Shown here: positions 10,091 to 57,418 of the stretch, piece by piece
Layout: each line of letters begins with the position of its first letter
Position numbering within the stretch: the first letter of the stretch is position 1
Assembly: GCA_044892505.1 (NCBI GenBank)
Contig: CM097883.1
Coordinates: 93,682,001 to 93,746,000 of the forward strand
Length of the DNA stretch: 64,000 bases
Origin: Schmidtea nova
Taxonomy: Eukaryota
Direction: 5' to 3'
Program-made: the position numbers and the translations under genes
Notes under the pieces: generated by a model
What the model was told of the DNA's origin: nothing
The model's input: the letters and a program-made list of their open reading frames with translations, nothing else
Database searches by the model: none

Positions 10091-10330
10091 AAAAGGGAGG
10101 GGGATGTGAGATGAAATTGATAAATTAATTATATATTATAAAAATCAGTATGAGTGTTACATTATGTATATGTTGTGTATGAATGTTGAAATTGCTCAAA
10201 GTATTATTTATATTAATATATATATTCTCCAAGATAATAAAAAAGAAAAATATTTGTTTTAATAATATATTTTTTTGAACGAAAGCGTGTTTTCAATTTA
10301 TGTATAAGAAAATTAATAATCAACCTAATA
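10091..10330 (+). mobile_element. Polypurine tract (10091-10104) and truncated 3' LTR starting TG at 10105
   Basis: AAAAGGGAGGGGGA then TGTGAG just after the integrase stop. No matching LTR end (CTCACA) occurs before the array starts, and no second LTR is in the window. Confidence 0.7.
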
Positions 10331-10337
10331 ATGGAGT

Positions 10338-22300: not shown

Positions 22301-25300
22301 TGATGTCACCTGGATTCTGTTGAATATATTAATACCAGGCTGAGATAGTCTTAGTGGAAATTTATAGATTTAAGTGTAAGCAAATGCACTATTTAATCAT
22401 CATAGGTCGTTTGTCTGAGATCACAACTGAAATTACCGGTCCAGTGAAAAGACATAATACAGTGTTTGCAACAGTATCTGAAGCGGCAATTAACTGTTAT
22501 TGGCCCAGATTTGTCCTCACCAGCAAAGATGATAACGAGTCAAGTTCTCTATTAAAGCATCAGAGTGCTGATATATTGACTTTAAATCCGAAATTATGGA
22601 GATTGTCGAATAGCCCTGAAAATGGATCTCTGATGGCATTAAAAGCACTGTTTAGGAGTTATGAGCATATCTTGGTTGATAGTCCTATGGATGAAGCACA
22701 CTTGATAATCGATATGGATGAGGATTCGAGAATCTTATATATTTTTACCAAGTTCTTAGCTGGCAGAGAATGTTCTTCTGAATTGCTTGAAAATTCACTT
22801 AGCTGCACTATAGGAGGATTTTTCACTCGTCAAAGGTACTATAAAGGCTTTTATACAGGTCCAGGTCTTTGGAAAGGAAGCATAAACAGAGCGCAAGTGG
22901 AAATAAGAATGCTAGATGATATTCTCACTTACATCACTGTGAGAGATATAAGGAGCTTGATAAAGATACAGAAACCACTATGTGAGCTATGTAAAGAACT
23001 AGGGAGAATCAAATCTAATAGCAGAGTTGAAGGTTCTATTTATTTAGATGTTGAATCATGCACGAAATGGAGCAGAAGAGAAGGTTTTGTGCCTATAAAA
23101 TATTCTGCTGAAATAAGTCTTTATGTGCATGAGCCAACTTCACTGAGGTTCAGTTATGACAGCTCAATTTTGAAATTGATAGCCGATAATGTAATGCCCG
23201 TAACTGTGCTTGGATTCACTATCAGAAGCCCAGCAAGCAATATGAATGAGCTAGAAATCTTCGGAAAAGATACGGTGAAACCTGCAGAATTCAGAATTCT
23301 AGAGTGGAAAGTAATAAATAATCTCCAGATGACCATTAACGAGTGCAGAGGCACAATTAAGAAATATCCAGCTTGGTCGAAAGTTGAAATGAGAAAATAT
23401 ATGAGCATGAAAGGATTTTCTACTTTAGCAGAGGAGATTTCATCGAAGATGGACACAACATTCAGCATTGATCATAAGCCTCTCATAGATTTCACAGCAA
23501 CTGAGGTTAAAGAAGATGTTGACTTAAATGCTCTAGATGATGAATACGATGACTGGATAATGGGACATGAAGAAGAATCCTCAGATGAAGAGCTTGGAGA
23601 TGATACAGCTTTATTTGAGATTGGCATCAATAAGGAGATTGACACTATCATGGATAATTTGTCTTAAGTGCCTTTACAAAGAGAAAAACCTGAAAAAATA
23701 TTCAGAACTAGTATTTTTGACACTTTCTTTAATCACTTAATAATGTTGAATCCGGAACCTTTGAGAAGGCTTAGTCAGCAATTCTGCCTGCAGTCAGATC
23801 ATATTTTGTTCAGAGAAATCTGTTTAGCATTCTCTTACGAACTTATAGAGGATCAAATCTTAGATGAAATAGTTGACGAAGAGAATCTCTAGACAATGAT
23901 CATCGGTTTTCAGAACGTGTAACTGTTTATAAATATGTACTTAGTGAATGACCTTGTAGAAGTTGTACAGTAGATAAAATGATATAATGCTATAAAAACT
24001 ATAAAAAACTATAAATAAACAATAAGAAAACAGTGATGCTTTGACTCAAATAATTGATATTGATGTCACCTGGATTCTGTTGAATATATTAATACCAGGC
24101 TGAGATAGTCTTAGTGGAAATTTATAGATTTAAGTGTAAGCAAATGCACTATTTAATCATCATAGGTCGTTTGTCTGAGATCACAACTGAAATTACCGGT
24201 CCAGTGAAAAGACATAATACAGTGTTTGCAACAGTATCTGAAGCGGCAATTAACTGTTATTGGCCCAGATTTGTCCTCACCAGCAAAGATGATAACGAGT
24301 CAAGTTCTCTATTAAAGCATCAGAGTGCTGATATATTGACTTTAAAAACGAAATTATGGAGATTGTCGAAATGCCCTGAAAATGGATCTCTGATGGCATT
24401 AAAAGCACTGTTTAGGAGTTATGAGCATATCTTGGTTGATAGTCCTATGGATGAAGCACACTTGATAATCGATATGGATGAGGATTCGAGAATCTTATAT
24501 ATTTTTACCAAGTTCTTAGCTGGCAGAGAATGTTCTTCTGAATTGCTTGAAAATTCACTTAGCGCACTATGGGATAATATTTCACTTGTCAAAGGTACTA
24601 TAAAGGCTTTTATACAGGTCCAGGTCTTTGGAAAGGAAGCATAAACAGAGCGCAAGTGGAAATAAGAATGCTAGATGATATTCTCACTTACATCACTGTG
24701 AGAGATATAAGGAGCTTGATAAAGATACAGAAACCACTATGTGAGCTATGTAAAGAACTAGGGAGAATCAAATCTAATAGCAGAGTTGAAGGTTTTATTT
24801 ATTTAGATGTTGAATCATGCACGAAATGGAGCAGAAGAGAAGGTTTTGTGCCTATAAAATATTCTGCTGAAATAAGTCTTTATGTGCATGAGCCAACTTC
24901 ACTGAGGTTCAGTTATGACAGCTCAATTTTGAAATTGATAGCCGATAATGTAATGCCCGTAACTGTGCTTGGATTCACTATCAGAAGCCCAGCAAGCAAT
25001 ATGAATGAGCTAGAAATCTTCGGAAAAGATACGGTGAAACCTGCAGAATTCAGAATTCTAGAGTGGAAAGTAATAAATAATCTCCAGATGACCATTAACG
25101 AGTGCAGAGGCACAATTAAGAAATATCCAGCTTGGTCGAAAGTTGAAATGAGAAAATATATGAGCATGAAAGTTTTTTCTACTTTAGCAGAGGAGATTTC
25201 ATCGAAGATGGACACAACATTCAGCATTGATCATAAGCCTCTCATAGATTTCACAGCAACTGAGGTTAAAGAAGATGTTGACTTAAATGCTCTAGATGAT

Positions 25301-27410
25301 GAATACGATGACTGGATAATGGGACATTAAGAAGAATCCTCAGATGAAGAGCTTGGAGATGATACAGCTTTATTTGAGATTGGCATCAATAAGGAGATTG
25401 ACACTATCATGGATAATTTGTCTTAAGTGCCTTTACAAAGAGAAAAACCTGAAAAAATATTCAGAACTAGTATTTTTGACACTTTCTTTAATCACTTAAT
25501 AATGTTGAATCCGGAACCTTTGAGAAGGCTTAGTCAGCAATTCTGCCTGCAGTCAGATCATATTTTGTTCAGAGAAATCTGTTTAGCATTCTCTTACGAA
25601 CTTATAGAGGATCAAATCTTAGATGAAATAGTTGACGAAGAGAATCTCTAGACAATGATCATCGGTTTTCAGAACGTGTAACTGTTTATAAATATGTACT
25701 TAGTGAATGACCTTGTAGAAGTTGTACAGTAGATAAAATGATATAATGCTATAAAAACTATAAAAAACTATAAATAAACAATAAGAAAACAGTGATGCTT
25801 TGACTCAAATAATTGATATTGATGTCACCTGGATTTTGTTGAATATATTAATACCAGGCTGAGATAGTCTTAGTGGAAATTTATAGATTTAAGTGTAAGC
25901 AAATGCACTATTTAATCATCATAGGTCGTTTGTCTGAGATCACAACTGAAATTACCGGTCCAGTGAAAAGACATAATACAGTGTTTGCAACAGTATCTGA
26001 AGCGGCAATTAACTGTTATTGGCCCAGATTTGTCCTCACCAGCAAAGATGATAACGAGTCAAGTTCTCTATTAAAGCATCAGAGTGCAGATATATTGACT
26101 TTAAAAACGAAATTATGGAGATTGTCGAAATGCCCTGAAAATGGATCTCTGATGGCATTAAAAGCACTGTTTAGGAGTTATGAGCATATCTTGGTTGACA
26201 GTCCTATGGATGAAGCACACTTGATAATCGATATGGATGAGGATTCGAGAATCTTATATATTTTTACCAAGTTCTTAGCTGGCAGAGAATGTTCTTCTGA
26301 ATTGCTTGAAAATTCACTTAGCGCACTATGGGATAATATTTCACTTGTCAAAGGTACTATAAAGGCTTTTATACAGGTCCAGGTCTTTGGAAAGGAAGCA
26401 TAAACAGAGACCAAGTGGAAATAAGAATGCTAGATGATATTCTCACTTACATCACTGTGAGAGATATAAGGAGCTTGATAAAGATACAGAAACCACTATG
26501 TGAGCTATGTAAAGAACTAGGGAGAATCAAATCTAATAGCAGAGTTGAAGGTTTTATTTATTTAGATGTTGAATCATGCACGAAATGGAGCAGAAGAGAA
26601 GGTTTTGTGCCTATAAAATATTCTGCTGAAATAAGTCTTTATGTGCATGAGCCAACTTCACTGAGGTTCAGTTATGACAGCTCAATTTTGAAATTGATAG
26701 CCGATAATGTAATGCCCGTAACTGTGCTTGGATTCACTATCAGAAGCCCAGCAAGCAATATGAATGAGCTAGAAATCTTCGGAAAAGATACGGTGAAACA
26801 TGCAGAATTCAGAATTCTAGAGTTGAAAGTGATAAATAATCTCCAGATGACCATTAACGAGTGCAGAGGGACAATTAAGAAATATCCAGCTTGGTCGAAA
26901 GTTGAAATGAGAAAATATATGAGCATGAAAGGATTTTCTACTTTAGCAGAGGAGATTTCATCGAAGATGGACACAACATTCAGCATTGATCATAAGCCTC
27001 TCATAGATTTCACAGCAACTGAGGTTAAAGAAGATGTTGACTTAAATGCTCTAGATGATGAATACGATGACTGGATAATGGGACATTAAGAAGAATCCTC
27101 AGATGAAGAGCTTGGAGATGATACAGCTTTATTTGAGATTGGCATCAATAAGGAGATTGACACTATCATGGATAATTTGTCTTAAGTGCCTTTACAAAGA
27201 GAAAAACCTGAAAAAATATTCAGAACTAGTATTTTTGACACTTTCTTTAATCACTTAATAATGTTGAATCCGGAACCTTTGAGAAGGCTTAGTCAGCAAT
27301 TCTGCCTGCAGTCAGATCATATTTTGTTCAGAGAAATCTGTTTAGCATTCTCTTACGAACTTATCGAGGATCAAATCTTAGATGAAATAGTTGACGAAGA
27401 GAATCTCTAG
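10338..27410 (+). pseudogene. L: Ten disrupted copies (U1-U10) of the L-fragment ORF
   Basis: All carry TAT>TAA after DNLS. Nine have a stop or frameshift at the GGFF motif, and five have GAA>TAA after MGH. The copy at 22354 keeps 437 codons. Confidence 0.8.
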
Positions 27411-27621
27411 ACAATGATCATCGGTTTTCAGAACGTGTAACTGTTTATAAATATGTACTTAGTGAATGACCTTGAAGAAGTTGTACAGTAGATAAAGTGA
27501 TATAATGCTATAAAAACTATAAATAAACAATAAAAAAACAGTGATGCTATGACTCAAAAAATTGATATTGATGTCACCTGGATTCTGTTGAATATATTAA
27601 TACCAGGCTGAGATAGTCTTA

Positions 27622-29160
27622 GTGGAAATTTATAGATTTAAGTGTAAGCAAATGCACTATTTAATCATCATAGGTCGTTTGTCTGAGATCACAACTGAAA
27701 TTACCGGTCCAGTGAAAAGACATAATACAGTGTTTGCAACAGTATCTGAAGCGGCAATTAACTGTTATTGGCCCAGATTTGTCCTCACCAGCAAAGATGA
27801 TAACGAGTCAAGTTCTCTATTAAAGCATCAGAGTGCTGATATATTGACTTTAAATCCGAAATTATGGAGATTGTCGAATAGCCCTGAAAATGGATCTCTG
27901 ATGGCATTAAAAGCACTGTTTAGGAGTTATGAGCATATCTTGGTTGATAGTCCTATGGATGAAGCACACTTGATAATCGATATGGATGAGGATTCGAGAA
28001 TCTTATATATTTTTACCAAGTTCTTAGCTGGCAGAGAATGTTCTTCTGAATTGCTTGAAAATTCACTTAGCTGCACTATAGGAGGATTTTTCACTCGTCA
28101 AAGGTACTATAAAGGCTTTTATACAGGTCCAGGTCTTTGGAAAGGAAGCATAAACAGAGCGCAAGTGGAAATAAGAATGCTAGATGATATTCTCACTTAC
28201 ATCACTGTGAGAGATATAAGGAGCTTGATAAAGATACAGAAACCACTATGTGAGCTATGTAAAGAACTAGGGAGAATCAAATCTAATAGCAGAGTTGAAG
28301 GTTCTATTTATTTAGATGTTGAATCATGCACGAAATGGAGCAGAAGAGAAGGTTTTGTGCCTATAAAATATTCTGCTGAAATAAGTCTTTATGTGCATGA
28401 GCCAACTTCACTGAGGTTCAGTTATGACAGCTCAATTTTGAAATTGATAGCCGATAATGTAATGCCCGTAACTGTGCTTGGATTCACTATCAGAAGCCCA
28501 GCAAGCAATATGAATGAGCTAGAAATCTTCGGAAAAGATACGGTGAAACATGCAGAATTCAGAATTCTAGAGTGGAAAGTGATAAATAATCTCCAGATGA
28601 CCATTAACGAGTGCAGAGGGACAATTAAGAAATATCCAGCTTGGTCAAAAGTTGAAATGAGAAAATATATGAGCATGAAAGGATTTTCTACTTTAGCAGA
28701 GGAGATTTCATCGAAGATGGACACAACATTCAGCATTGATCATAAGCCTCTCATAGATTTCACAGCAACTGAGATTAAAGAAGATGTTGACTTAGATGCT
28801 CTAGATGATGAATACGATGACTGGATAATGGGACATGAAGAAGAATCCTCAGATGAAGAGCTTGGAGATGATACAGCTTTATTTGAGATTGGCATCAATA
28901 AGGAGATTGACACTATCATGGATAATTTGTCTTATGTACCTTTACAAAGAGAAAAACCTGAAAAAATATTCAGAACTAGTATTTTTGACACTTTCTTTAA
29001 TCACTTAATAATGTTGAATCCGGAACCTTTGAGAAGGCTTAGTCAGCAATTCTGCCTGCAGTCAGATCATATTTTGTTCAGAGAAATCTGTTTAGCATTC
29101 TCTTACGACATTATAGAGGATCAAATCTTAGATGAAATAGTTGTCGAAGAGAATCTCTAG
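27622..29160 (+). CDS. L: Intact L-protein C-terminal fragment ORF (512 codons from GTG, 502 from first ATG at 27652), copy U11
   Basis: Uninterrupted ORF with the cap-binding-like motif at 28081-28146. Expression is not shown. Confidence 0.7.
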   Translation: MEIYRFKCKQMHYLIIIGRLSEITTEITGPVKRHNTVFATVSEAAINCYWPRFVLTSKDDNESSSLLKHQSADILTLNPKLWRLSNSPENGSLMALKALFRSYEHILVDSPMDEAHLIIDMDEDSRILYIFTKFLAGRECSSELLENSLSCTIGGFFTRQRYYKGFYTGPGLWKGSINRAQVEIRMLDDILTYITVRDIRSLIKIQKPLCELCKELGRIKSNSRVEGSIYLDVESCTKWSRREGFVPIKYSAEISLYVHEPTSLRFSYDSSILKLIADNVMPVTVLGFTIRSPASNMNELEIFGKDTVKHAEFRILEWKVINNLQMTINECRGTIKKYPAWSKVEMRKYMSMKGFSTLAEEISSKMDTTFSIDHKPLIDFTATEIKEDVDLDALDDEYDDWIMGHEEESSDEELGDDTALFEIGINKEIDTIMDNLSYVPLQREKPEKIFRTSIFDTFFNHLIMLNPEPLRRLSQQFCLQSDHILFREICLAFSYDIIEDQILDEIVVEENL

Positions 29161-29332
29161 ACAATGATCATCGGTTTTCAGAACGTGTAACTGTTTATAA
29201 ATATGTACTTAGTGAATGACCTTGTAGAAGTTGTACAGTAGATAAAGTGATATAATGCTAATACTCAAATAATTGATATTGATGTCACCTGGATTCTGTT
29301 GATTATATTAATACCAGGCTGAGATAGTCTTA

Positions 29333-30871
29333 GTGGAAATTTATAGATTTAAGTGTAAGCAAATGCACTATTTAATCATCATAGGTCGTTTGTCTGAGAT
29401 CACAACTGAAATTACCGGTCCAGTGAAAAGACATAATACAGTGTTTGCAACAGTATCTGAAGCGGCAATTAACTGTTATTGGCCCAGATTTGTCCTCACC
29501 AGCAAAGATGATAACGAGTCAAGTTCTCTATTAAAGCATCAGAGTGCTGATATATTGACTTTAAATCCGAAATTATGGAGATTGTCGAATAGCCCTGAAA
29601 ATGGATCTCTGATGGCATTAAAAGCACTGTTTAGGAGTTATGAGCATATCTTGGTTGATAGTCCTATGGATGAAGCACACTTGATAATCGATATGGATGA
29701 GGATTCGAGAATCTTATATATTTTTACCAAGTTCTTAGCTGGCAGAGAATGTTCTTCTGAATTGCTTGAAAATTCACTTAGCTGCACTATAGGAGGATTT
29801 TTCACTCGTCAAAGGTACTATAAAGGCTTTTATACAGGTCCAGGTCTTTGGAAAGGAAGCATAAACAGAGCGCAAGTGGAAATAAGAATGCTAGATGATA
29901 TTCTCACTTACATCACTGTGAGAGATATAAGGAGCTTGATAAAGATACAGAAACCACTATGTGAGCTATGTAAAGAACTAGGGAGAATCAAATCTAATAG
30001 CAGAGTTGAAGGTTCTATTTATTTAGATGTTGAATCATGCACGAAATGGAGCAGAAGAGAAGGTTTTGTGCCTATAAAATATTCTGCTGAAATAAGTCTT
30101 TATGTGCATGAGCCAACTTCACTGAGGTTCAGTTATGACAGCTCAATTTTGAAATTGATAGCCGATAATGTAATGCCCGTAACTGTGCTTGGATTCACTA
30201 TCAGAAGCCCAGCAAGCAATATGAATGAGCTAGAAATCTTCGGAAAAGATACGGTGAAACATGCAGAATTCAGAATTCTAGAGTGGAAAGTGATAAATAA
30301 TCTCCAGATGACCATTAACGAGTGCAGAGGGACAATTAAGAAATATCCAGCTTGGTCAAAAGTTGAAATGAGAAAATATATGAGCATGAAAGGATTTTCT
30401 ACTTTAGCAGAGGAGATTTCATCGAAGATGGACACAACATTCAGCATTGATCATAAGCCTCTCATAGATTTCACAGCAACTGAGATTAAAGAAGATGTTG
30501 ACTTAGATGCTCTAGATGATGAATACGATGACTGGATAATGGGACATGAAGAAGAATCCTCAGATGAAGAGCTTGGAGATGATACAGCTTTATTTGAGAT
30601 TGGCATCAATAAGGAGATTGACACTATCATGGATAATTTGTCTTATGTACCTTTACAAAGAGAAAAACCTGAAAAAATATTCAGAACTAGTATTTTTGAC
30701 ACTTTCTTTAATCACTTAATAATGTTGAATCCGGAACCTTTGAGAAGGCTTAGTCAGCAATTCTGCCTGCAGTCAGATCATATTTTGTTCAGAGAAATCT
30801 GTTTAGCATTCTCTTACGACATTATAGAGGATCAAATCTTAGATGAAATAGTTGTCGAAGAGAATCTCTAG
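29333..30871 (+). CDS. L: Intact L-fragment ORF, copy U12
   Basis: Same protein as U11. Confidence 0.7.
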   Translation: MEIYRFKCKQMHYLIIIGRLSEITTEITGPVKRHNTVFATVSEAAINCYWPRFVLTSKDDNESSSLLKHQSADILTLNPKLWRLSNSPENGSLMALKALFRSYEHILVDSPMDEAHLIIDMDEDSRILYIFTKFLAGRECSSELLENSLSCTIGGFFTRQRYYKGFYTGPGLWKGSINRAQVEIRMLDDILTYITVRDIRSLIKIQKPLCELCKELGRIKSNSRVEGSIYLDVESCTKWSRREGFVPIKYSAEISLYVHEPTSLRFSYDSSILKLIADNVMPVTVLGFTIRSPASNMNELEIFGKDTVKHAEFRILEWKVINNLQMTINECRGTIKKYPAWSKVEMRKYMSMKGFSTLAEEISSKMDTTFSIDHKPLIDFTATEIKEDVDLDALDDEYDDWIMGHEEESSDEELGDDTALFEIGINKEIDTIMDNLSYVPLQREKPEKIFRTSIFDTFFNHLIMLNPEPLRRLSQQFCLQSDHILFREICLAFSYDIIEDQILDEIVVEENL

Positions 30872-31043
30872 ACAATGATCATCGGTTTTCAGAACGTGTA
30901 ACTGTTTATAAATATGTACTTAGTGAATGACCTTGTAGAAGTTGTACAGTAGATAAAGTGATATAATGCTAATACTCAAATAATTGATATTGATGTCACC
31001 TGGATTCTGTTGAATATATTAATACCAGGCTGAGATAGTCTTA

Positions 31044-32581
31044 GTGGAAATTTATAGATTTAAGTGTAAGCAAATGCACTATTTAATCATCATAGGTCGT
31101 TTGTCTGAGATCACAACTGAAATTACCGGTCCAGTGAAAAGACATAATACAGTGTTTGCAACAGTATCTGAAGCGGCAATTAACTGTTATTGGCCCAGAT
31201 TTGTCCTCACCAGCAAAGATGATAACGAGTCAAGTTCTCTATTAAAGCATCAGAGTGCTGATATATTGACTTTAAAAACGAAATTATGGAGATTGTCGAA
31301 ATGCCCTGAAAATGGATCTCTGATGGCATTAAAAGCACTGTTTAGGAGTTATGAGCATATCTTGGTTGATAGTCCTATGGATGAAGCACACTTGATAATC
31401 GATATGGATGAGGATTCGAGAATCTTATATATTTTTACCAAGTTCTTAGCTGGCAGAGAATGTTCTTCTGAATTGCTTGAAAATTCACTTAGCCGCACTA
31501 TAGGAGGATTTTTCACTCGTCAAAGGTACTATAAAGGCTTTTATACAGGTCCAGGTCTTTGGAAAGGAAGCATAAACAGAGCGCAAGTGGAAATAAGAAT
31601 GCTAGATGATATTCTCACTTACATCACTGTGAGAGATATAAGGAGCTTGATAAAGATACAGAAACCACTATGTGAGCTATGTAAAGAACTAGGGAGAATC
31701 AAATCTAATAGCAAAGTTGAAGGTTCTATTTATTTAGATGTTGAATCATGCACGAAATGGAGCAGAAGAGAAGGTTTTGTGCCTATAAAATATTCTGCTG
31801 AAATAAGTCTTTATGTGCATGAGCCAACTTCACTGAGGTTCAGTTATGACAGCTCAATTTTGAAATTGATAGCCGATAATGTAATGCCCGTAACTGTGCT
31901 TGGATTCACTATCAGAAGCCCAGCAAGCAATATGAATGAGCTAGAAATCTTCGGAAAAGATACGGTGAAACATGCAGAATTCAGAATTCTAGAGTTGAAA
32001 GTGATAAATAATCTCCAGATGACCATTAACGAGTGCAGAGGGACAATTAAGAAATATCCAGCTTGGTCGAAAGTTGAAATGAGAAAATATATGAGCATGA
32101 AAGGATTTTCTACTTTAGCAGAGGAGATTTCATCGAAGATGGACACAACATTCAGCATTGATCATAAGCCTCTCATAGATTTCACAGCAACTGAGATTAA
32201 AGAAGATGTTGACTTAGATGCTCTAGATGATGAATACGATGACTGGATAATGGGACATGAAGAAGAATCCTCAGATGAAGAGCTTGGAGATGATACAGCT
32301 TTATTTGAGATTGGCATCAATAAGGAGATTGACACTATCATGGATAATTTGTCTTATGTACCTTTACAAAGAGAAAAACCTGAAAAAATATTCAGAACTA
32401 GTATTTTTGACACTTTCTTTAATCACTTAATAATGTTGAATCCGGAAGCTTTGAGAAGGTGAGTCAGCAATTCTGCCTGCAGTCAGATCATATTTTGTTC
32501 AGAGAAATCTGTTTAGCATTCTCTTACGACATTATAGAGGATCAAATCTTAGATGAAATAGTTGTCGAAGAGAATCTCTAG
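31044..32581 (+). pseudogene. L: L-fragment copy U13, truncated at 472 codons
   Basis: GAGAAGGTGA lesion gives an early TGA at 32460-32462. Confidence 0.7.
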
Positions 32582-32753
32582 ACAATGATCATCGGTTTTC
32601 AGAACGTGTAACTGTTTATAAATATGTACTTAGTGAATGACCTTGTAGAAGTTGTACAGTAGATAAAGTGATATAATGCTAATACTCAAATAATTGATAT
32701 TGATGTCACCTGGATTCTGTTGAATATATTAATACCAGGCTGAGATAGTCTTA

Positions 32754-34292
32754 GTGGAAATTTATAGATTTAAGTGTAAGCAAATGCACTATTTAATCAT
32801 CATAGGTCGTTTGTCTGAGATCACAACTGAAATTACCGGTCCAGTGAAAAGACATAATACAGTGTTTGCAACAGTATCTGAAGCGGCAATTAACTGTTAT
32901 TGGCCCAGATTTGTCCTCACCAGCAAAGATGATAACGAGTCAAGTTCTCTATTAAAGCATCAGAGTGCTGATATATTGACTTTAAAAACGAAATTATGGA
33001 GATTGTCGAAATGCCCTGAAAATGGATCTCTGATGGCATTAAAAGCACTGTTTAGGAGTTATGAGCATATCTTGGTTGATAGTCCTATGGATGAAGCACA
33101 CTTGATAATCGATATGGATGAGGATTCGAGAATCTTATATATTTTTACCAAGTTCTTAGCTGGCAGAGAATGTTCTTCTGAATTGCTTGAAAATTCACTT
33201 AGCCGCACTATAGGAGGATTTTTCACTCGTCAAAGGTACTATAAAGGCTTTTATACAGGTCCAGGTCTTTGGAAAGGAAGCATAAACAGAGCGCAAGTGG
33301 AAATAAGAATGCTAGATGATATTCTCACTTACATCACTGTGAGAGATATAAGGAGCTTGATAAAGATACAGAAACCACTATGTGAGCTATGTAAAGAACT
33401 AGGGAGAATCAAATCTAATAGCAAAGTTGAAGGTTCTATTTATTTAGATGTTGAATCATGCACGAAATGGAGCAGAAGAGAAGGTTTTGTGCCTATAAAA
33501 TATTCTGCTGAAATAAGTCTTTATGTGCATGAGCCAACTTCACTGAGGTTCAGTTATGACAGCTCAATTTTGAAATTGATAGCCGATAATGTAATGCCCG
33601 TAACTGTGCTTGGATTCACTATCAGAAGCCCAGCAAGCAATATGAATGAGCTAGAAATCTTCGGAAAAGATACGGTGAAACATGCAGAATTCAGAATTCT
33701 AGAGTTGAAAGTGATAAATAATCTCCAGATGACCATTAACGAGTGCAGAGGGACAATTAAGAAATATCCAGCTTGGTCGAAAGTTGAAATGAGAAAATAT
33801 ATGAGCATGAAAGGATTTTCTACTTTAGCAGAGGAGATTTCATCGAAGATGGACACAACATTCAGCATTGATCATAAGCCTCTCATAGATTTCACAGCAA
33901 CTGAGATTAAAGAAGATGTTGACTTAAATGCTCTAGATGATGAATACGATGACTGGATAATGGGACATGAAGAAGAATCCTCAGATGAAGAGCTTGGAGA
34001 TGATACGGCTTTATTTGAGATTGGCATCAATAAGGAGATTGACACTATCATGGATAATTTGTCTTATGTACCTTTACAAAGAGAAAAACCTGAAAAAATA
34101 TTCAGAACTAGTATTTTTGACACTTTCTTTAATCACTTAATAATGTTGAATCCGGAACCTTTGAGAAGGCTTAGTCAGCAATTCTGCCTGCAGTCAGATC
34201 ATATTTTGTTCAGAGAAATCTGTTTAGCATTCTCTTACGACATTATAGAGGATCAAAACTTAGATGAAATAGTTGACGAAGAGAATCTCTAG
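32754..34292 (+). CDS. L: Intact L-fragment ORF, copy U14
   Basis: 512-codon ORF. Confidence 0.7.
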   Translation: MEIYRFKCKQMHYLIIIGRLSEITTEITGPVKRHNTVFATVSEAAINCYWPRFVLTSKDDNESSSLLKHQSADILTLKTKLWRLSKCPENGSLMALKALFRSYEHILVDSPMDEAHLIIDMDEDSRILYIFTKFLAGRECSSELLENSLSRTIGGFFTRQRYYKGFYTGPGLWKGSINRAQVEIRMLDDILTYITVRDIRSLIKIQKPLCELCKELGRIKSNSKVEGSIYLDVESCTKWSRREGFVPIKYSAEISLYVHEPTSLRFSYDSSILKLIADNVMPVTVLGFTIRSPASNMNELEIFGKDTVKHAEFRILELKVINNLQMTINECRGTIKKYPAWSKVEMRKYMSMKGFSTLAEEISSKMDTTFSIDHKPLIDFTATEIKEDVDLNALDDEYDDWIMGHEEESSDEELGDDTALFEIGINKEIDTIMDNLSYVPLQREKPEKIFRTSIFDTFFNHLIMLNPEPLRRLSQQFCLQSDHILFREICLAFSYDIIEDQNLDEIVDEENL

Positions 34293-34512
34293 ACAATGAT
34301 CATCGGTTTTCAGAACGTGTAACTGTTTATAAATATGTACTTAGTGAATGACCTTGTAGAAGTTGTACAGTAGATAAAGTGATATAATGCTATAATAACT
34401 ATAAAAAACTATAAATAAACAATAAAAAACAGTGATGCTATGACTCAAATAATTGATATTGATGTCACCTGGATTCTGTTGAATATATTAATACCAGGCT
34501 GAGATAGTCTTA

Positions 34513-36051
34513 GTGGAAATTTATAGATTTAAGTGTAAGCAAATGCACTATTTAATCATCATAGGTCGTTTGTCTGAGATCCCAACTGAAATTACCGGTC
34601 CAGTGAAAAGACATAATACTGTGTTTGCAACAGTATCTGAAGCGGCAATTAACTGTTATTGGCCCGGATTTGTCCTCACCAGCAAAGATGATAACGAGTC
34701 AAGTTCTTTATTAAAGCATCAGAGTGCAGATATATTGACTTTAAAAACGAAATTATGGAGATTGTCGAAATGCCCTGAAAATGGATCTCTGATGGCATTA
34801 AAAGCACTGTTTAGGAGTTATGAGCATATCTTGGTTGATAGTCCTATGGATGAAGCACACTTGATAATCGATATGGATGAGGATTCGAGAATCTTATATA
34901 TTTTTACCAAGTTCTTAGCTGGCAGAGAATGTTCTTCTGAATTGCTTGAAAATTCACTTAGCTGCACTATAGGAGGATTTTTCACTCGTCAAAGGTACTA
35001 TAAAGGCTTTTATACAGGTCCAGGTCTTTGGAAAGGAAGCATAAACAGAGCGCAAGTGGAAATAAGAATGCTAGATGATATTCTCACTTACATCACTGTG
35101 AGAGATATAAGGAGCTTGATAAAGATACAGAAACCACTATGTGAGCTATGTAAAGAACTAGGGAGAATCAAATCTAATAGCAGAGTTGAAGGTTCTATTT
35201 ATTTAGATGTTGAATCATGCACGAAATGGAGCAGAAGAGAAGGTTTTGTGCCTATAAAATATTCTGCTGAAATAAGTCTTTATGTGCATGAGCCAACTTC
35301 ACTGAGGTTCAGTAATGACAGCTCAATTTTGAAATTGATAGCCGATAATGTAATGCCCGTAACTGTGCTTGGATTCACTATCAGAAGCCCAGCAAGCAAT
35401 ATGAATGAGCTAGAAATCTTCGGAAAAGATACGGTGAAACATGCAGAATTCAGAATTCTAGAGTGAAAAGTGATAAATAATCTCCAGATGACCATTAACG
35501 AGTGCAGAGGGACAATTAAGAAATATCCAGCTTGGTCGAAAGTTGAAATGAGAAAATATATGAGCATGAAAGGATTTTCTACTTTAGCAGAGGAGATTTC
35601 ATCGAAGATGGACACAACATTCAGCATTGATCATAAGCCTCTCATAGATTTCACAGCAACTGAGATTAAAGAAGATGTTGACTTAGATGCTCTAGATGAT
35701 GAATACGATGACTGGATAATGGGACATGAAGAAGAATCCTCAGATGAAGAGCTTGGAGATGATACGGCTTTATTTGAGATTGGCATCAATAAGGAGATTG
35801 ACACTATCATGGATAATTTGTCTTATGTACCTTTACAAAGATAAAAACCTGAAAAAATATTCAGAACTAGTATTTTTGACACTTTCTTTAATCACTTAAT
35901 AATGTTGAATCCGGAACCTTTGAGAAGGCTTAGTCAGCAATTCTGCCTGCAGTCAGATCATATTTTGTTCAGAGAAATCTGTTTAGCATTCTCTTACGAC
36001 ATTATAGAGGATCAAAACTTAGATGAAATAGTTGACGAAGAGAATCTCTAG
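34513..36051 (+). pseudogene. L: L-fragment copy U15 with two nonsense changes
   Basis: TGG>TGA after RILE and AGAGAA>AGATAA after PLQR; same lesions as U18. Confidence 0.75.
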
Positions 36052-36272
36052 ACAATGATCATCGGTTTTCAGAACGTGTAACTGTTTATAAATATGTACT
36101 TAGTGAATGACCTTGTAGAGGTTGTACAGTAGATAAAGTGATATAATGCTATAAAAACTATAAAAAACTATAAATAAACAATAAAAAAACAGTGATGCTA
36201 TGACTCAAATAATTGATATTGATGTCACCTGGATTCTGTTGAATATATTAATACCAGGCTGAGATAGTCTTA

Positions 36273-37811
36273 GTGGAAATTTATAGATTTAAGTGTAAGC
36301 AAATGCACTATTTAATCATCATAGGTCGTTTGTCTGAGATCACAACTGAAATTACCGGTCCAGTGAAAAGACATAATACAGTGTTTGCAACAGTATCTGA
36401 AGCGGCAATTAACTGTTATTGGCCTAGATTTGTCCTCACCAGCAAAGATGATAACGAGTCAAGTTCTCTATTAAAGCATCAGAGTGCTGATATATTGACT
36501 TTAAAAACGAAATTATGGAGACTGTCGAAATGCCCTGAAAATGGATCTCTGATGGCATTAAAAGCACTGTTTAGGAGTTATGAGCATATCTTGGTTGATA
36601 GTCCTATGGATGAAGCACACTTGATAATCGATATGGATGAGGATTCGAGAATCTTATATATTTTTACCAAGTTCTTAGCTGGCAGAGAATGTTCTTCTGA
36701 ATTGCTTGAAAATTCACTTAGCTGCACTATAGGAGGATTTTTCACTCGTCAAAGGTACTATAAAGGCTTTTATACAGGTCCAGGTCTTTGGAAAGGAAGC
36801 ATAAACAGAGCGCAAGTGGAAATAAGAATGCTAGATGATATTCTCACTTACATCACTGTGAGAGATATAAGGAGCTTGATAAAGATACAGAAACCACTAT
36901 GTGAACTTTGCAAAGAACTAGGGAGAATCAAATCTAATAGCAGAGTTGAAGGTTCTATTTATTTAGATGTTGAATCATGCACGAAATGGAGCAGAAGAGA
37001 AGGTTTTGTGCCTATAAAATATTCTGCTGAAATAAGTCTTTATGTGCATGAGCCAACTTCACTGAGGTTCAGTTATGACAGCTCAATTTTGAAAATGATA
37101 GCCGATAATGTAATGCCCGTAACTGTGCTTGGATTCACTATCAGAAGTCCAGCAAGCAATAAGAATGAGCTAGAAATCTTCGGAAAAGATACGGTGAAAC
37201 ATGCAGAATTCAGAATTCTAGAGTGGAAAGTGATAAATAATCTCCAGATGACCATTAACGAGTGCAGAGGGACAATTAAGAAATATCCAGCTTGGTCGAA
37301 AAATGAAATGAGAAAATATATGAGCATGAAAGGATTTTCTACTTTAGCAGAGGAGATTTCATCGAAGATGGACACAACATTCAGCATTGATCATAAGCCT
37401 CTCATAGATTTCACAGCAACTGAGGTTAAAGAAGATGATGACTTAAATGCTCTAGATGATGAATACGATGACTGGATAATGGGACATGAAGAAGAATCCT
37501 CAGATGAAGAGCTTGGAGATGATACGGCTTTATTTGAGATTGGCATCAATAAGGAGATTGACACTATCATGGATAATTTGTCTTATGTACCTTTACAAAG
37601 AGAAAAACCTGAAAAAATATTCAGAACTAGTATTTTTGACACTTTCTTTAATCACTTAATAATGTTGAATCCGGAACCTTTGAGAAGGCTTAGTCAGCAA
37701 TTCTGCCTGCAGTCAGATCATATTTTGTTCAGAGAAATCTGTTTAGCATTCTCTTACGACATTATAGAGGATCAAAACTTAGATGAAATAGTTGACGAAG
37801 AGAATCTCTAG
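36273..37811 (+). CDS. L: Intact L-fragment ORF, copy U16
   Basis: 512-codon ORF. Confidence 0.7.
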   Translation: MEIYRFKCKQMHYLIIIGRLSEITTEITGPVKRHNTVFATVSEAAINCYWPRFVLTSKDDNESSSLLKHQSADILTLKTKLWRLSKCPENGSLMALKALFRSYEHILVDSPMDEAHLIIDMDEDSRILYIFTKFLAGRECSSELLENSLSCTIGGFFTRQRYYKGFYTGPGLWKGSINRAQVEIRMLDDILTYITVRDIRSLIKIQKPLCELCKELGRIKSNSRVEGSIYLDVESCTKWSRREGFVPIKYSAEISLYVHEPTSLRFSYDSSILKMIADNVMPVTVLGFTIRSPASNKNELEIFGKDTVKHAEFRILEWKVINNLQMTINECRGTIKKYPAWSKNEMRKYMSMKGFSTLAEEISSKMDTTFSIDHKPLIDFTATEVKEDDDLNALDDEYDDWIMGHEEESSDEELGDDTALFEIGINKEIDTIMDNLSYVPLQREKPEKIFRTSIFDTFFNHLIMLNPEPLRRLSQQFCLQSDHILFREICLAFSYDIIEDQNLDEIVDEENL

Positions 37812-38031
37812 ACAATGATCATCGGTTTTCAGAACGTGTAACTGTTTATAAATATGTACTTAGTGAATGACCTTGTAGAAGTTGTACAGTAGATAAAGTG
37901 ATATAATGCTATAATAACTATAAAAAACTATAAATAAACAATAAAAAACAGTGATGCTATGACTCAAATAATTGATATTGATGTCACCTGGATTCTGTTG
38001 AATATATTAATACCAGGCTGAGATAGTCTTA

Positions 38032-49450: not shown

Positions 49451-49996
49451 TTATGACCTTTGGCCTAATAAACCAGCACCTCCCAATAATGATAAAGCTA
49501 GTGGTAACAATGCTGCAATAAATCCTCCTTGTTGTTTATATATTATTTTGCGCATAAGTTTTCGATTTTTTGTTTTTACAAGCGACAACAATGGTTTCTT
49601 ATGCTTGTTCAAAACACGTCGATTAGATGGACTTAGATGCATTTTACCTCTCACTACTTTAATTAAAATAGCGAGTAAATCATCGATAACGTAATTAGGA
49701 AACGATTGAAGAATACCCATTCTTCTAGCGCTCGGGACTTTAAGCAATGCATTAAAAAACGGAAAACTCCGATGATGTATTTGTTTAGCATTGGATTTCC
49801 AATTAATTGGAATTTGATTACTCTTGGGAATATTATCCATAATTAGTTTTTTCGACGGTGTATAACTGTTTTTTGAAACTGATTTTGAAACGGATTTCTT
49901 TGACGATTTCTTTCGTCGACCTGCTTTCTTACCTATTTTCATTGATTTTCTAGCTTTTATCAATCGTTCAAACTTTACTCGAGATTTCATTAACAT
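49451..49996 (-). CDS. pX-like core protein, copy 2
   Basis: Same protein as 45386..45931. Confidence 0.6.
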   Translation of the reverse strand: MLMKSRVKFERLIKARKSMKIGKKAGRRKKSSKKSVSKSVSKNSYTPSKKLIMDNIPKSNQIPINWKSNAKQIHHRSFPFFNALLKVPSARRMGILQSFPNYVIDDLLAILIKVVRGKMHLSPSNRRVLNKHKKPLLSLVKTKNRKLMRKIIYKQQGGFIAALLPLALSLLGGAGLLGQRS

Positions 49997-50016
49997 TATT
50001 ATTACTGTAAATCAAT

Positions 50017-50459
50017 TTAAGTTTGTTTATAAACCATGGCTCCTTCCTTGTTAAAAATATCAGTTCTAACTCTTAAATCATCACTGCATTGTTGAGTAAA
50101 ATCCAGGAAAATATATCCATGAGGAGATTTTGTAGCATCTTGAAAGGCTTCCATCAAAAATTTACGGTTTGAAGAATAAGCTTGTCTTGCCAGAAAATCA
50201 AAAACTGTTGCATCTCTAGGACTTTTAAACACAACAAGATATTGAACATTTAAATTACGGGTTCGATGACTACCACCCTGATGAAATAAATTCTGAGTTA
50301 TAAAAATAACGGTAACACCTTTGTGTCTACTGATTTTCGTAAATACGTAAATTATTAAAATCCTTCTCTTTATTTGCTTCTTGGTACAAGTCATCAATGA
50401 TAATCACATCATCTTGTTGTAATCTAGATGACCAGTTTTTATCGTAACCTTTTATGATT
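50017..50459 (-). pseudogene. Packaging ATPase C-terminal part, copy 2
   Basis: Duplicate of 45952..46394. Confidence 0.88.
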
Positions 50460-51513
50460 GCCAACTTCACTGAGGTTCAGTTATGACAGCTCAATTTTGA
50501 AATTGATAGCCGATAATGTAATGCCCGTAACTGTGCTTGGATTCACTATCAGAAGCCCAGCAAGCAATATGAATGAGCTAGAAATCTTCGGAAAAGATAC
50601 GGTGAAACATGCAGAATTCAGAATTCTAGAGTGGAAAGTGATAAATAATCTCCAGATGACCATTAACGAGTGCAGAGGGACAATTAAGAAATATCCAGCT
50701 TGGTCGAAAAATGAAATGAGAAAATATATGAGCATGAAAGGATTTTCTACTTTAGCAGAGGAGATTTCATCGAAGATGGACACAACATTCAGCATTGATC
50801 ATAAGCCTCTCATAGATTTCACAGCAACTGAGATTAAAGAAAATGTTGACTTAGATGCTCTAGATGATGAATACGATGACTGGATAATGGGACATGAAGA
50901 AGAATCCTCAGATGAAGAGCTTGGAGATGATACAGCTTTATTTGAGATTGGCATCAATAAGGAGATTGACACTATCATGGATAATTTGTCTTATGTACCT
51001 TTACAAAGAGAAAAACCTGAAAAAATATTCAGAACTAGTATTTTTGACACTTTCTTTAATCACTTAATAATGTTGAATCCGGAACCTTTGAGAAGGCTTA
51101 GTCAGCAATTCTGCCTGCAGTCAGATCATATTTTGTTCAGAGAAATCTGTTTAGCATTCTCTTACGACATTATAGAGGATCAAAACTTAGATGAAATAGT
51201 TGACGAAGAGAATCTCTAGACAATGATCATCGGTTTTCAGAACGTGTAACTGTTTATAAATATGTACTTAGTGAATGACCTTGTAGAAGTTGTACAGTAT
51301 ATAAAGTGATATAATGCTATAAAAACTATAAAAAACTATAAATAAACAATAAAAAAACAGTGATGCTATGACTCAAATAATTGATATTGATGTCACCTGG
51401 ATTCTGTTGAATATATTAATACCAGGCTGAGATAGTCTTAGTGGAAATTTATAGATTTAAGTGTAAGCAAATGCACTATTTAATCATCATAGGTCGTCTG
51501 TCTGAGATCACAA
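50460..51513 (+). repeat. Half-unit of the bunyavirus-like array, copy 2
   Basis: Duplicate of 46395..47448. Confidence 0.92.
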
Positions 51514-51642
51514 GTTTACAAAGTAAAATGGTAGTTAGTCGATTTCAAGACTAATATTCACTAATTAATGCAATGTGCAAACGGTTTAGGTCTCTCTGCA
51601 TTTTGTTATAAGTATTTTTCATGATTCATTGGGGGGGGTTTC

Positions 51643-51833
51643 ATGATTGTCATTTTTATTTTACAAAACTGATCTTGGGTCATTCCATGTTCGTCGTCAG
51701 CACCCCTATGCCAATAAATTTTATTGAATTTTGATTTGAATAATTTCGATTGTAGTAATTTGCAAACAAATTAAGTTTTTCCACTCCCGCTTGGACCAAC
51801 AATTTGAAACACTGCATCATTTCTTAATTCCAT
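51643..51833 (-). pseudogene. Packaging ATPase N-terminal part (not in ORF track)
   Basis: Reverse complement reads MELRNDAVFQIVGPSGSGKT*FVCKLLQ...KIKMTI (Walker A, then TAA). It joins the C-terminal part in frame if the insert is removed. Confidence 0.88.
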
Positions 51834-51926
51834 ATTTAAAAATTATAATAAATTAATATTATTGTTTATATTTGTTTTAAATACTCGCTCTCAAAGTAAT
51901 TGTTTCATTTAAAAATATTTTCAGTA

Positions 51927-52394
51927 ATGATTAGAAACATTAATTACAAGGGTAAGACAGATGTGTCACACATGAAATTTCCAAATGGAAAACCACAGCA
52001 AATTGCAGATAGAAGTGGAAAATATCCAATAATATACTTTAAGACCGGTAGATATAGAATAATGGGATGCAAGGAATTTATTAATGATGAACAAGTTAAG
52101 TTTTACGATTTAACAATACAATCGATAACTGTAACTGCAGATTTAGGATTTATTTGTAATTTAAATGAATTATCTAAAGTGATACCGTGTGTTTACGAGC
52201 CAGAATTATTTCCAGCTTTGAGATACATCAAATATAATCCCATGTGTGTAAATATATTTGCAAGTGGGAAATTATTCATATTAGGATTAAAAAACAAAGA
52301 CTATTCAACTATAGTTGATGATATTATTAACGATATAAAATCAATTATCGAAGATAAAGCCTTTGTTGATTTCATACTAACATGTGACTCATGA
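51927..52394 (+). CDS. TATA-binding-protein-like protein (155 aa from ATG 51927)
   Basis: Two TBP half-repeats: IRNINY..IYFKTGRYRIMGCK and IQSITVTADL..YEPELFPALRY..P.CVNIFASGKLFILGLK. Confidence 0.8.
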   Translation: MIRNINYKGKTDVSHMKFPNGKPQQIADRSGKYPIIYFKTGRYRIMGCKEFINDEQVKFYDLTIQSITVTADLGFICNLNELSKVIPCVYEPELFPALRYIKYNPMCVNIFASGKLFILGLKNKDYSTIVDDIINDIKSIIEDKAFVDFILTCDS

Positions 52395-52660
52395 CTGCAA
52401 TATCGATGCACTAGAAATGCACGATTCTGATTGGTTCTGTGAGTATTTCGATAATAAAGACATGTTGGGCATGCTTGAATCTGATTGGTTCATTATGTAT
52501 TATTTTGCAAATCATGTGTGTTTCTTTCGTATATAAACTATGAACAATCTGTTATAGTTTATATCTACAATTATATCTCAAAAAACAAATAATTTAAAAA
52601 ATGGTAATATTTAAATTAATATATTTACAAATTTAATATATTTTATTTTTAGAAAAACTC

Positions 52661-52975
52661 ATGTCCGTTATATATACAAAATTGGCTGAGATGTTCCCCA
52701 ATCTGATGCAGACGCTGACCTATACAGCACCGGATCTGTTCCCATACAAAATTCAAGTTTTGACGGGAATCGACGTGAATCAGATATTGAAGGATCACCA
52801 GGCAAATATCAACAATGAACTACCTTTTATGGCGGAACATATATTATGCGCCTATCAATGCGAACACTGTGTGGATAGAATACACAAATTACAAGTGTGG
52901 GTTCTCCGAAATACTCTGAATCAATTTAAGACCCATCAGATGAATGAAATTATCGAGGAGGAGATGGAAAAATAA
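52661..52975 (+). CDS. Hypothetical Polinton accessory protein (C-x3-C-x2-C)
   Basis: 104 aa ORF preceded by CCAAT and TATA elements and a possible 49 nt intron. No family recognised. Confidence 0.5.
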   Translation: MSVIYTKLAEMFPNLMQTLTYTAPDLFPYKIQVLTGIDVNQILKDHQANINNELPFMAEHILCAYQCEHCVDRIHKLQVWVLRNTLNQFKTHQMNEIIEEEMEK

Positions 52976-53680
52976 AGATGGCTCAACTCAACTCCCGAGC
53001 CGATTGATGATGATTCAACAGATTTAGAAGCACAACACTAGATGGACCTTATCCATTGGAGTCACCTCAATCTCGGGATTGTAATGAATGTCACCGAAAG
53101 ATTGATGACGACATTGTAGATGATAATTGTCAATCTGATGATGATCATTGTCAATCTCGTGATGGTGGACCAATAGATATGTAAATTTTATTATCAATTA
53201 TGTTGAATAAACGTTTTCATTTTATTTTTAGTTTTTTTTATTTGTAAGAACTTTTTATTTAAATGTTTTAATTATTTTATTAAACTTTTTATTAAATAAG
53301 AAAGTGTTTTAGGTTTTATTTTTAAAAAAAGTATTTTAATTATTAAAGTTTTTATTAAATGCGAATCAGTAAGAAAGTTTTTTATTTTTTATGAAAAATA
53401 ATTATTGTGAAATAAATAATTACAAAACTTAAGAACATTAGTAGCAGAACATTGCGAGCAGAACCCTAGTATCAGAACATCTTTTGTGATGGTTTTTATG
53501 TGCAAAAGCTCATTACTTGAACATATACAAAATTAATAAACATGCATGCATACAACAAAGACATTGCAATACAGATGCATAGTGTGTGCAAGATAAATGC
53601 ATGAATATGATTGGACAAAGACATCCAGTCATCAGTATAAATACAAAGTGGTTTTTTAAAATATTGTCACAATTTATAAA

Positions 53681-54097
53681 ATGCATTCACGAAAACAAAA
53701 TTTAGAGATCAGCGAAGAAAAAATAATCATGACTGAGGTAAAACCAGTCCAGATGTACTATGATAGCCGAATTTATTTTTTGGTTCAAGAAATACCATTT
53801 CGAATATCATATCCAGTAAAGTTGACAAAGTCTTTATATGACAGTCTTGCTATAATTATTGATAGAGAAGATATTATCGCACTTAATAGATTATTTTCAA
53901 AGATCAATATTAATTTAACTTGTAAAGAAACAATGTACGTCAATAACAGAAAAACTCGGTTCCATAATGCTTTTCAAACTATCGAATTCGTGGATCAAGC
54001 ACATTGGTTCGTTACGGTAATAATTCAAGGATACAAGATTGATAAAAAGGATGTTGTTACTCCAATTTGGAGAGTTGACAATGCAAGATACGCCTAA
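53681..54097 (+). CDS. Hypothetical Polinton accessory protein
   Basis: 138 aa ORF with ATG, upstream inverted CCAAT (53608) and TATAAAT (53636), and AATAAA after the stop. Confidence 0.6.
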   Translation: MHSRKQNLEISEEKIIMTEVKPVQMYYDSRIYFLVQEIPFRISYPVKLTKSLYDSLAIIIDREDIIALNRLFSKININLTCKETMYVNNRKTRFHNAFQTIEFVDQAHWFVTVIIQGYKIDKKDVVTPIWRVDNARYA

Positions 54098-54160
54098 TTG
54101 TGATTTAATAAATTTTAGTATGAACAATTTTAGTTTTGATATTACTTTTTTGTTTTTAAA

Positions 54161-54763
54161 ATGAAATTAATTATAGTGTTATTATTATTATGTGTTCACA
54201 ATACCGAAGGAGAACAACCTTTGGAATCTTGTCAATCATCCCATCCGTTTAGAAGAGAAGATAGTACTTGCGCGAGTTATAATGAAATATGTATTTACTC
54301 AAACACTGAATGTAGTCAAATAAAATTACAATGTGATGAATGTCCTTCCAAAAATAATTTGATTAATAATGATATTGAAAAAATAATTAGTAAAATAAAA
54401 TTACAATGTGATCAATATCCTTCAAAAAATGAATTGATTAACAGTGAAATGGAAAAAATAATTATGAATATAATGATGAAAATTGTTGAAAGATTGAAAC
54501 GTACGAATCAAACATTTGTTAAAAAACAATATGAAGTACGATGCCAAAATCAAACGGTTGAAATTGATAACGAAAAAACAGCCATAGTATTACATTATAT
54601 AAGTTTATTTATATTAATAATTATACTGATATTATCGACATCGATACGATTAGAGAAAATATCTAATATTCCAAAGAATAATATTCCGAAAAATAATAAT
54701 ATTCCAATGAATAATATTACAATGAATAATATTCCTATGAATAATATTCCCAGTAATAATTAA
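54161..54763 (+). CDS. Type I membrane protein with TNF-receptor-like cysteine-rich domain
   Basis: Signal peptide MKLIIVLLLLCVHNTEG, C-x12-C-x2-Y-x3-C spacing, a 25 aa internal duplication, TM IVLHYISLFILIIILILS, and an NNIP-repeat tail. Confidence 0.6.
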   Translation: MKLIIVLLLLCVHNTEGEQPLESCQSSHPFRREDSTCASYNEICIYSNTECSQIKLQCDECPSKNNLINNDIEKIISKIKLQCDQYPSKNELINSEMEKIIMNIMMKIVERLKRTNQTFVKKQYEVRCQNQTVEIDNEKTAIVLHYISLFILIIILILSTSIRLEKISNIPKNNIPKNNNIPMNNITMNNIPMNNIPSNN

Positions 54764-54856
54764 TGTCAATAATTTTGAATCGAAATTTTGTACACGCACA
54801 CAACAATATATTTATAAATAAATTTTATTTTATTTTGTCTTTGTCTTTGTATTTTC

Positions 54857-55100
54857 AATGTCTTTGTTTACGTTCCACATGGATTACAATGTCTTTGTTT
54901 ACGTTGCACATGGATTGCAATGTCTTTGATGACTCATATTTGTGTTAAAAAATTTGTGTTAAAAAAATTTGTGTTAAAAAAATTTGTTAAAAAAGTTTTT
55001 GGCGCAAAAAAAATTTGAACAATTTTTGGCGCAAAAAAAAATTTGAAAAAAATTTTTGGGGCGAAAAAAAATTTGAAAAAAATTTATGAGTCATCGATGA
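54857..55100. repeat. Subterminal repeats of Polinton 2 (~32 bp AATGTCTTTG units; AAAAAATTTGTGTT and TTTTTGGCGCAAAAA units)
   Basis: Direct reading. Confidence 0.8.
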
Positions 55101-55180
55101 GCCATCAAAAAAATTTTTTACACCCCCCCGGGGAAGGGTCTTTGTTCTTTCTTCCGCCCTCGCAATGAGTCATAATGTCT

Positions 55181-55209
55181 TTGTTCCCGGCTCCGCACAT
55201 CTACCTACT
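55181..55209. repeat. Polinton terminal sequence (right TIR end) of element 2
   Basis: TTGTTCCCGGCTCCGCACATCTACCTACT. Confidence 0.85.

Positions 55210-57416: not shown

Positions 57417-57418
<2 letters not shown>
55905..57418 (+). mobile_element. Tc1/IS630-like (DD34E) DNA transposon, full length, inactive
   Basis: TIRs CCATTTTCCGG(T/C)CAATTTAGTCTTTTT at both ends, TA flanks, and ~20 bp subterminal repeats. Confidence 0.9.
56149..57227 (+). pseudogene. Tc1/IS630 transposase
   Basis: N-terminal HTH region; FIDESGFNL, LILDNARIH, LSPYSYMLNPIENSF. Frameshift at ~56650 and two in-frame TGA. Confidence 0.9.

Follow-up and report, generated by a model that had tools for sequence, protein, structure and literature searches.

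A phenuivirus-like L fragment in a Polinton packaging ATPase gene of Schmidtea nova, probably placed there by templated repair from a neighbouring fossil array

The stretch of DNA analysed here (the window; 64,000 nucleotides, G000:C2:93682001-93746000 in an assembly of 1.25 Gb) holds a tandem array of viral units and the remnant of a Polinton, and the array and a duplication were both seen by self-comparison. The order along the locus is array, segment X, Polinton segment A, insert copy 2, segment A, insert copy 3 and Polinton segment B (Table 1). The Polinton remnant starts abruptly at 43551 inside its penton-like gene and has one terminus, at 55209, ending CTACCTACT; its left half was not found. 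Its integrase gene carries a 2-bp deletion, and one further gene is, judged by its motif, presumably a pVII-like core gene. The TBP-like gene (51900-52394; Pfam TBP, E 1.8e-12) is arranged head-to-head with the ATPase gene, and such a gene is also found in L027:5054-5524. Tc1/mariner-like transposase pieces (HTH, DDE_3) at 55864-57227 are bracketed by inverted repeats of about 137 bp (55899-56035 and 57289-57424). Array unit 2 is interrupted by a nested insertion of about 20.7 kb (L026:9655 to window 10330), in which a Polinton with a perfect 6-bp target-site duplication (TSD) sits within a Gypsy element whose LTR ends TA, not CA. A reading in which the whole fossil splits one Polinton was not borne out: the polB stub upstream (L046, terminus L053:9339) has the same orientation, but its flank GTTGTG is unlike GGAGAC at 55210.

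Table 1. Features of the locus, in window coordinates.
Feature	Position	Strand	Remarks
6-bp TSD ACAGTT of another Polinton with AGTAGGTAG termini	8541..8546	+	control, Polinton integrase junction
3' LTR of Gypsy element splitting array unit 2	10105..10330	+	5-bp TSD ATGGA; integrase control
Tandem array, units of about 1.75 kb (C-terminal half of L and first about 295 nt of UTR)	10331..43382	+	
Likely template, terminal array unit reaching the viral terminus	42329..43530	+	
20-bp tandem duplication over viral terminus/Polinton junction	43513..43552	+	repeated at 47578-47617
Polinton remnant	43551..55209	-	penton-like gene (cut off), integrase, ATPase, TBP-like gene, pVII-like core gene
Unit of 4,065-bp tandem duplication (insert copy 2 and Polinton segment)	46395..50459	+	
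C-terminal part of ATPase with Walker B	50017..50459	-	
Left copy of ATGATTG	50454..50460	+	final G is also first base of viral template (microhomology)
Open frame of 253 codons, C-terminal end of L	50458..51219	+	in frame with L026:8116-9189
Insert copy 3, 3' end of phenuivirus-like L segment (antigenome sense)	50460..51642	+	
Viral UTR including segment X (51514-51642)	51220..51642	+	ends 16-18 nt before segment terminus
N-terminal part of Polinton A32-like packaging ATPase with Walker A	51643..51833	-	
Right copy of ATGATTG	51643..51649	+	AT shared with the next two template bases

The insert is viral sequence from end to end in the alignment, with the ends GCCAAC...GGGTTTC. By itself its frame gave no Pfam match, and a pairwise comparison with the L protein P0004 was not significant; the 519-aa frame of the array unit likewise had no match in Pfam and none in a protein search among long proteins. 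The insert frame was assigned to L because it is in frame with the stretch upstream given in Table 1 and because the adjoining frame at L026:7483-8514, which runs into it, matches amino acids 1450-1789 of P0004 (E 7e-18). RdRp-core pieces upstream of the window (L024/L026) matched Bunya_RdRp (E 9.8e-24) and gave six PDB matches, all to L proteins (7EEI, 9QTB, 8AS6 and related chains); we take these to be phenuivirus L, with 7EEI and 8AS6 presumably from RVFV and SFTSV. The core is only 25-35% identical to the nearest eight database proteins found. It is closest to the phenuivirus L structures and, lying upstream, is tied to the insert by frame and colinearity. Further diverged L fossils (66-70%) are present at L030 and L031 (G000:C2:351.4-351.8 Mb), so that several related viruses appear to have been endogenised on this chromosome. 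Elsewhere, a Polinton terminus at L029:5196 (G000:C2:448.426 Mb) directly adjoins another phenuivirus-like L fossil, the rest of which was not found in the next 25 kb.

The original prediction had regarded X as a separate segment, but X is contiguous viral UTR. An independent fossil of a related virus, 83 Mb away and 73% identical (L028:4934-6671, G000:C2:10.807 Mb), retains a full-length UTR and a near-complete segment terminus; there the 3' part of X has a homologue (74% over 93 nt) with an identical 19-mer after it, and 441 nt lie between the L stop codon and the end of the terminus motif in both fossils. X had also been considered as a transposon end (CAC...GTG or CA-3') or a Polinton end, and these candidates were rejected in view of the homologue in the second viral fossil and the genomic matches, of which there are only three. 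The reverse complement of the end of the last array unit (43521-43530) is ACACATAGTC, an ACACA-type terminus identical at 8 of 10 positions to ACACAAAGAC, given as the phenuivirus terminal decamer (PMC8652140), and its conserved 3' stretch recurs in L028. The complementary other end of the segment was not found in the stretches of DNA examined. The insert is therefore a plain, non-chimeric linear piece comprising the C-terminus of L and the UTR minus its last 16-18 nt.

The sequence ATGATT at 50454-50459 and 51643-51648 does bracket 1183 bp, as had been reported, although the exact direct repeat is 7 bp (ATGATTG), within an imperfect repeat of 12/14. This hexamer is common, with 28 occurrences on the + strand of the window, and the empty site is therefore the real test of an insertion. 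A genome search with the left flank, a 360-bp piece, returned 3151 first-look candidates, of which 40 were scored as matches; 20 loci were taken, two of them local, and the 18 others (L006-L023), the best of the non-local matches, were compared. In all 18 of these uninterrupted Polinton copies the flanks are contiguous, with one hexamer each (ATGATT in 13, ATAATT in four and ATAAAT in one) and no insert. An intact related ATPase at L027:5617-6240 (76% DNA identity; Pox_A32, E 1.6e-06), from which the family of the interrupted gene is taken, reads through the insertion site between Walker A and Walker B. Together with the empty sites, this read-through establishes that the insertion and its short duplication are real, and the central claim, that bunyaviral sequence interrupts a Polinton packaging ATPase gene with a short target duplication, is borne out. 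Polintons are abundant in this genome, as the candidate count illustrates, and an insertion inside one would thus need no special cause. It had further been claimed that removing the insert restores the ATPase frame. This holds across the junction itself, where the restored reading is natural, but elsewhere the gene has an in-frame stop just after Walker A (51771-51773) and a 4-bp duplication after Walker B (50344-50347), the latter missing from all five natural copies compared.

Support for the junctions among the reads was uneven. The right junction is bridged by a Logan contig from run X3 (51504-51676, two other letters), whereas the one contig across the left junction (X1, 50420-50487) reaches just 28 letters into viral sequence, below the 31-letter bar. 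A contig from run X2 spans the 20-bp duplication, and run X4 gave no contig over X. The ratio of contig depth between unit and X was 6.5-7.2, against 7.3 expected for 22:3 copies, a weak indication as depth is no copy number. It is barely credible that the locus is an artefact of assembling a repeat-rich region: the two duplicated Polinton segments are identical and the four runs, which form one study, may be the source of the assembly itself, but contigs run across the 20-bp duplication as well as the right junction, some alleles are private to the insert and the depth ratios agree with three copies of X.

The boundaries of the insert are ambiguous by 1 nt at the left and 2 nt at the right. 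At the left junction G is common to target and template and three of four bases match; at the right, the template TTTCAT and the target TTTTAT share five of six. Both junctions thus carry microhomology, with a null P of about 0.01 for a post hoc score: in 200,000 random pairs of template end and target site, P(sum >= observed) was 0.00985, the score having been defined after the event. Taken singly, the left junction is matched in 13.7% of random trials, which is unremarkable, and the right in 1.7%. Within ATGATTG only GATT cannot derive from the virus and is certainly duplicated, so the target duplication measures 4-7 bp depending on how the bases common to the template are assigned. A non-templated run of A or T, such as a poly(A) tract, was sought at both junctions and none was found.

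These junctions bear on the model first put forward, in which an array piece, excised or circular, was integrated by the integrase of a Polinton or Gypsy element and a Polinton could carry such a piece as cargo. A 6-bp TSD is formally one possible parse; it is the size of the TSD ACAGTT of a local Polinton and lies within the 5-8 bp described for Polinton TSDs (bioRxiv 2023.08.22.554363). The repeat can also be measured as anything from 4 to 7 bp. The alternative parse, a 4-bp TGAT TSD with Gypsy-style TG...CA ends, fails since the TG on the left is untemplated: GCCAAC is preceded by A in 19 of the 19 array units in the window and by T in none. The Gypsy element in array unit 2, with LTRs 97.8% identical, has a TSD of 5 bp, not 4. 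Local Polinton ends are of the form AGTAGGTAG...CTACCTACT, as seen at 8540, at 55209 and in natural copies, while the insert has neither terminal inverted repeats starting AGTAG nor AGT...ACT Polinton ends. No LTR, PBS or PPT was found in it, and the local LTR at 10105-10330 had no self-BLAST match to it. With no cognate ends, microhomology at both junctions, which under this model would have to be chance, and a repeat of 4-7 bp, integration by an integrase is not upheld. Nor can the Polinton plausibly move cargo, as half of it is missing and its ATPase and integrase genes are broken, and the suggestion that it carried array pieces is not supported. Genome searches found no dispersed copies: X, sought by DNA and pattern search, occurs in only three local copies, which lends no support to the claim that array pieces were mobilised beyond the locus, and a search with the unit found near-identical sequence only here (at least 11 matches, eight of nine candidates scored).

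The same model took the insert to span a head-to-tail unit junction and hence to come from a tandem or circular template. The true junction, ATCACAA followed by CTGAAATT, was placed from the unit start at L026:7724, which lies in natural L context. It occurs 18 times in the window and once more upstream, and in neither insert copy. A join of the L end to Y was rejected as the tandem junction, Y and X being contiguous UTR. With the true junction missing from the insert and X forming contiguous viral UTR, the inference of a tandem or circular template is not supported, and we regard insertion by an integrase as highly improbable overall.

The likely template is instead the terminal array unit. 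Its stretch 42329-43514 is colinear with the insert and 99.5% identical to it, and, if the 4,065-bp duplication that arose later is discounted, the array ends 2.9 kb from the insertion site. In a comparison over 1054 bp, five differences separate the insert from the terminal unit and 8-21 separate it from the 19 others. The alleles seen at offsets 840 and 1038 are common to the insert and the terminal unit and found in none of those 19. At offset 149 a derived allele (17 of 22 copies), altering a residue conserved in both outgroup fossils and the leftmost unit, is present in the insert, the terminal unit and 14 internal units. The insert also carries a dinucleotide, derived with respect to two outgroup fossils, that is otherwise confined to two internal units. 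Since the insert and array units have derived alleles in common, the insert must have been copied from the chromosomal array or have exchanged sequence with it later. Regarding the array itself (29255, 30966, 32676 and 33533-41623), a deletion in the A-rich UTR is common to three units and certain alleles reappear in every other unit, a substructure that suggests higher-order amplification and exchange. Upstream of the window the RdRp-core part of the same L segment (L024:1547-4894, L026:3663-7482) forms tandem repeats too, at a period of about 1.7 kb, two different L pieces being amplified at similar unit length.

The three near-identical copies (starting at 42329, 46395 and 50460) are due to the 4,065-bp tandem duplication, in which 42329-47579 and 46395-51644 are 99.85% identical. 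Insert and template are separated by two private differences, whereas the two duplicated Polinton segments show none in 2880 sites (Poisson P 0.008), and the duplication is therefore younger than the insertion. A single rolling-circle event as the origin of both the insert and the duplication is disfavoured. Unequal crossover between two 1.18-kb copies is likely the simplest cause of the duplication. It does not by itself explain offset 840, where copy 2 agrees with the array and copies 1 and 3 have a different allele in common; that pattern calls for either a further conversion or an error in the consensus. The 20-bp duplication covers the viral terminus and two further A bases, and its left edge coincides with the right end of the insert.

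RNA-templated retrocopying is the main rival to templated repair. A host non-LTR element could have reverse-transcribed an RNA, whether L mRNA or genome RNA of the virus or a transcript made from the fossil array, by target-primed synthesis, leaving a 7-bp TSD and using 1-2 nt of priming homology at each end. Such a duplication with short junction homologies fits insertions of this kind as described (PMC5110952), and a non-LTR reverse transcriptase is encoded at L026:3-1676. Phlebovirus mRNAs are described as lacking poly(A) and as ending 3-4 nt from a GCUGC-type motif (PMC5533932), and a 4/5 match to this motif begins 1 nt past the end of the insert. A motif equally close is nevertheless found at 13.8% of all possible end points, and a transcription terminator at the insert end was dismissed as not significant. 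The absence of poly(A), the array-derived alleles in the insert and the large coincidence of landing within about 3 kb of the source in 1.25 Gb also count against target-primed reverse transcription, which we judge unlikely; the narrower version, in which a host non-LTR reverse transcriptase copied a non-polyadenylated viral L mRNA or fossil transcript, is a little more doubtful still. If it were true, the right end would record where the polymerase of an unknown phenuivirus-like virus stopped transcription, 16-18 nt before the segment end. Another possibility is that a second, separate piece of viral cDNA entered the locus during the original endogenisation and that gene conversion later made it match the array. 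Several rearranged L pieces do occur at the locus (L024:824-4894, L026:3663-7482), and composite nrEVEs, and nrEVEs lacking LTR pieces, have been described (PMC8048955). This would require a second integration within 3 kb and conversions at several separated sites, while the insert shows plain colinearity with the end of the array, and we consider this possibility quite improbable.

We propose that the insert was probably produced by local templated insertion through microhomology-mediated break repair and that unequal crossover followed. The template, its proximity, the homologies at the junctions, the empty sites and the relative order of events are observed, and the course of the repair is inferred from them. 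It would have begun with a break, or a fork that stalled, in the already broken ATPase gene of the Polinton, whose end ...ATGATTG may have found loose pairing with ATGA--GCCA some 4 kb upstream, in the terminal array unit. Having switched to this unit, the new strand would have been extended for 1.18 kb through the C-terminus of L and the UTR, and it could then have re-annealed via TTTCAT/TTTTAT a few bases behind the point of departure, duplicating 4-7 bp. Later, unequal crossover between the two 1.18-kb copies would have duplicated the 4,065-bp unit of insert and Polinton. MM-BIR switches are described as using 2-5 bp of microhomology (PMC7407515). The right end of the insert is the last of 10 equivalent re-entry sites, a stop for which the repair model has only a speculative explanation: the template might have been cut short there, and the stopping point set, by the break from which the 20-bp duplication at the viral terminus resulted. 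Tandem duplications of this type are reported to arise at breaks with 3' overhangs (PMC8355091). Other points tell against templated repair. A clean 6-bp parse is formally possible, the microhomology score was chosen after the junctions had been seen and the left junction alone gives P 0.14, and the alleles common to the insert and terminal unit could stem from later gene conversion. Among human templated insertions, duplications of at least 5 bp are described as typical of the LINE-made class 1 and not of the repair-made class 2 (PMC5110952), and the duplication seen here would be as long as 7 bp if the shared bases are credited to the target.

The locus is of modest importance as a datable example of how host repair and unequal crossover multiply and rearrange RNA-virus fossils once these have integrated. 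The integrase-made junctions that lie alongside the insert serve as controls for it, and a 6-bp repeat inside a Polinton should not, taken alone, be read as the mark of an integrase. The locus provides no evidence for Polintons trafficking RNA-virus genes. What it does keep, from a hitherto undescribed phenuivirus-like lineage, is the segment terminus together with the full UTR, as the second fossil confirms.

The open literature searched yielded no account of precisely this configuration, which does not establish its absence from print. The insert resembles templated insertions made by MM-BIR/FoSTeS or theta-mediated end joining, as described in PMC7407515, in its nearby template, 1-5 nt of microhomology, small duplication at re-entry and complex local rearrangement. 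Classical SD-MMEJ is described as using templates within about 30 bp of the break, and the 1.18 kb of the insert is long by comparison (PMC7407515). Like the templated sequence insertion polymorphisms of PMC5110952, the insert is a genomic patch at a new site, but it pairs what may be a class 1 duplication (at least 5 bp) with class 2 microhomology and fits neither class cleanly as defined there, has no poly(A) and has a template about 3 kb away and not distant (PMC5110952). As with a Polinton/Maverick integrase insertion, a 6-bp parse is possible; the insert differs in having no terminal inverted repeats and microhomology at both ends. The fossil is like the Phenuiviridae L segment in its Bunya_RdRp core and terminus, while its UTR is long, at 442 nt. 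The locus also recalls the nrEVEs described among transposons, Phenuiviridae-derived and composite ones included (PMC8048955), in which RNA-virus fragments are rearranged and nested with Gypsy and DNA elements. In contrast to these, the units here number about 20 in tandem, the segment terminus is preserved and a secondary copy lies in a Polinton gene. It is a new instance of a rearranged RNA-virus fossil combined with a templated insertion, both known kinds, and not a new system.
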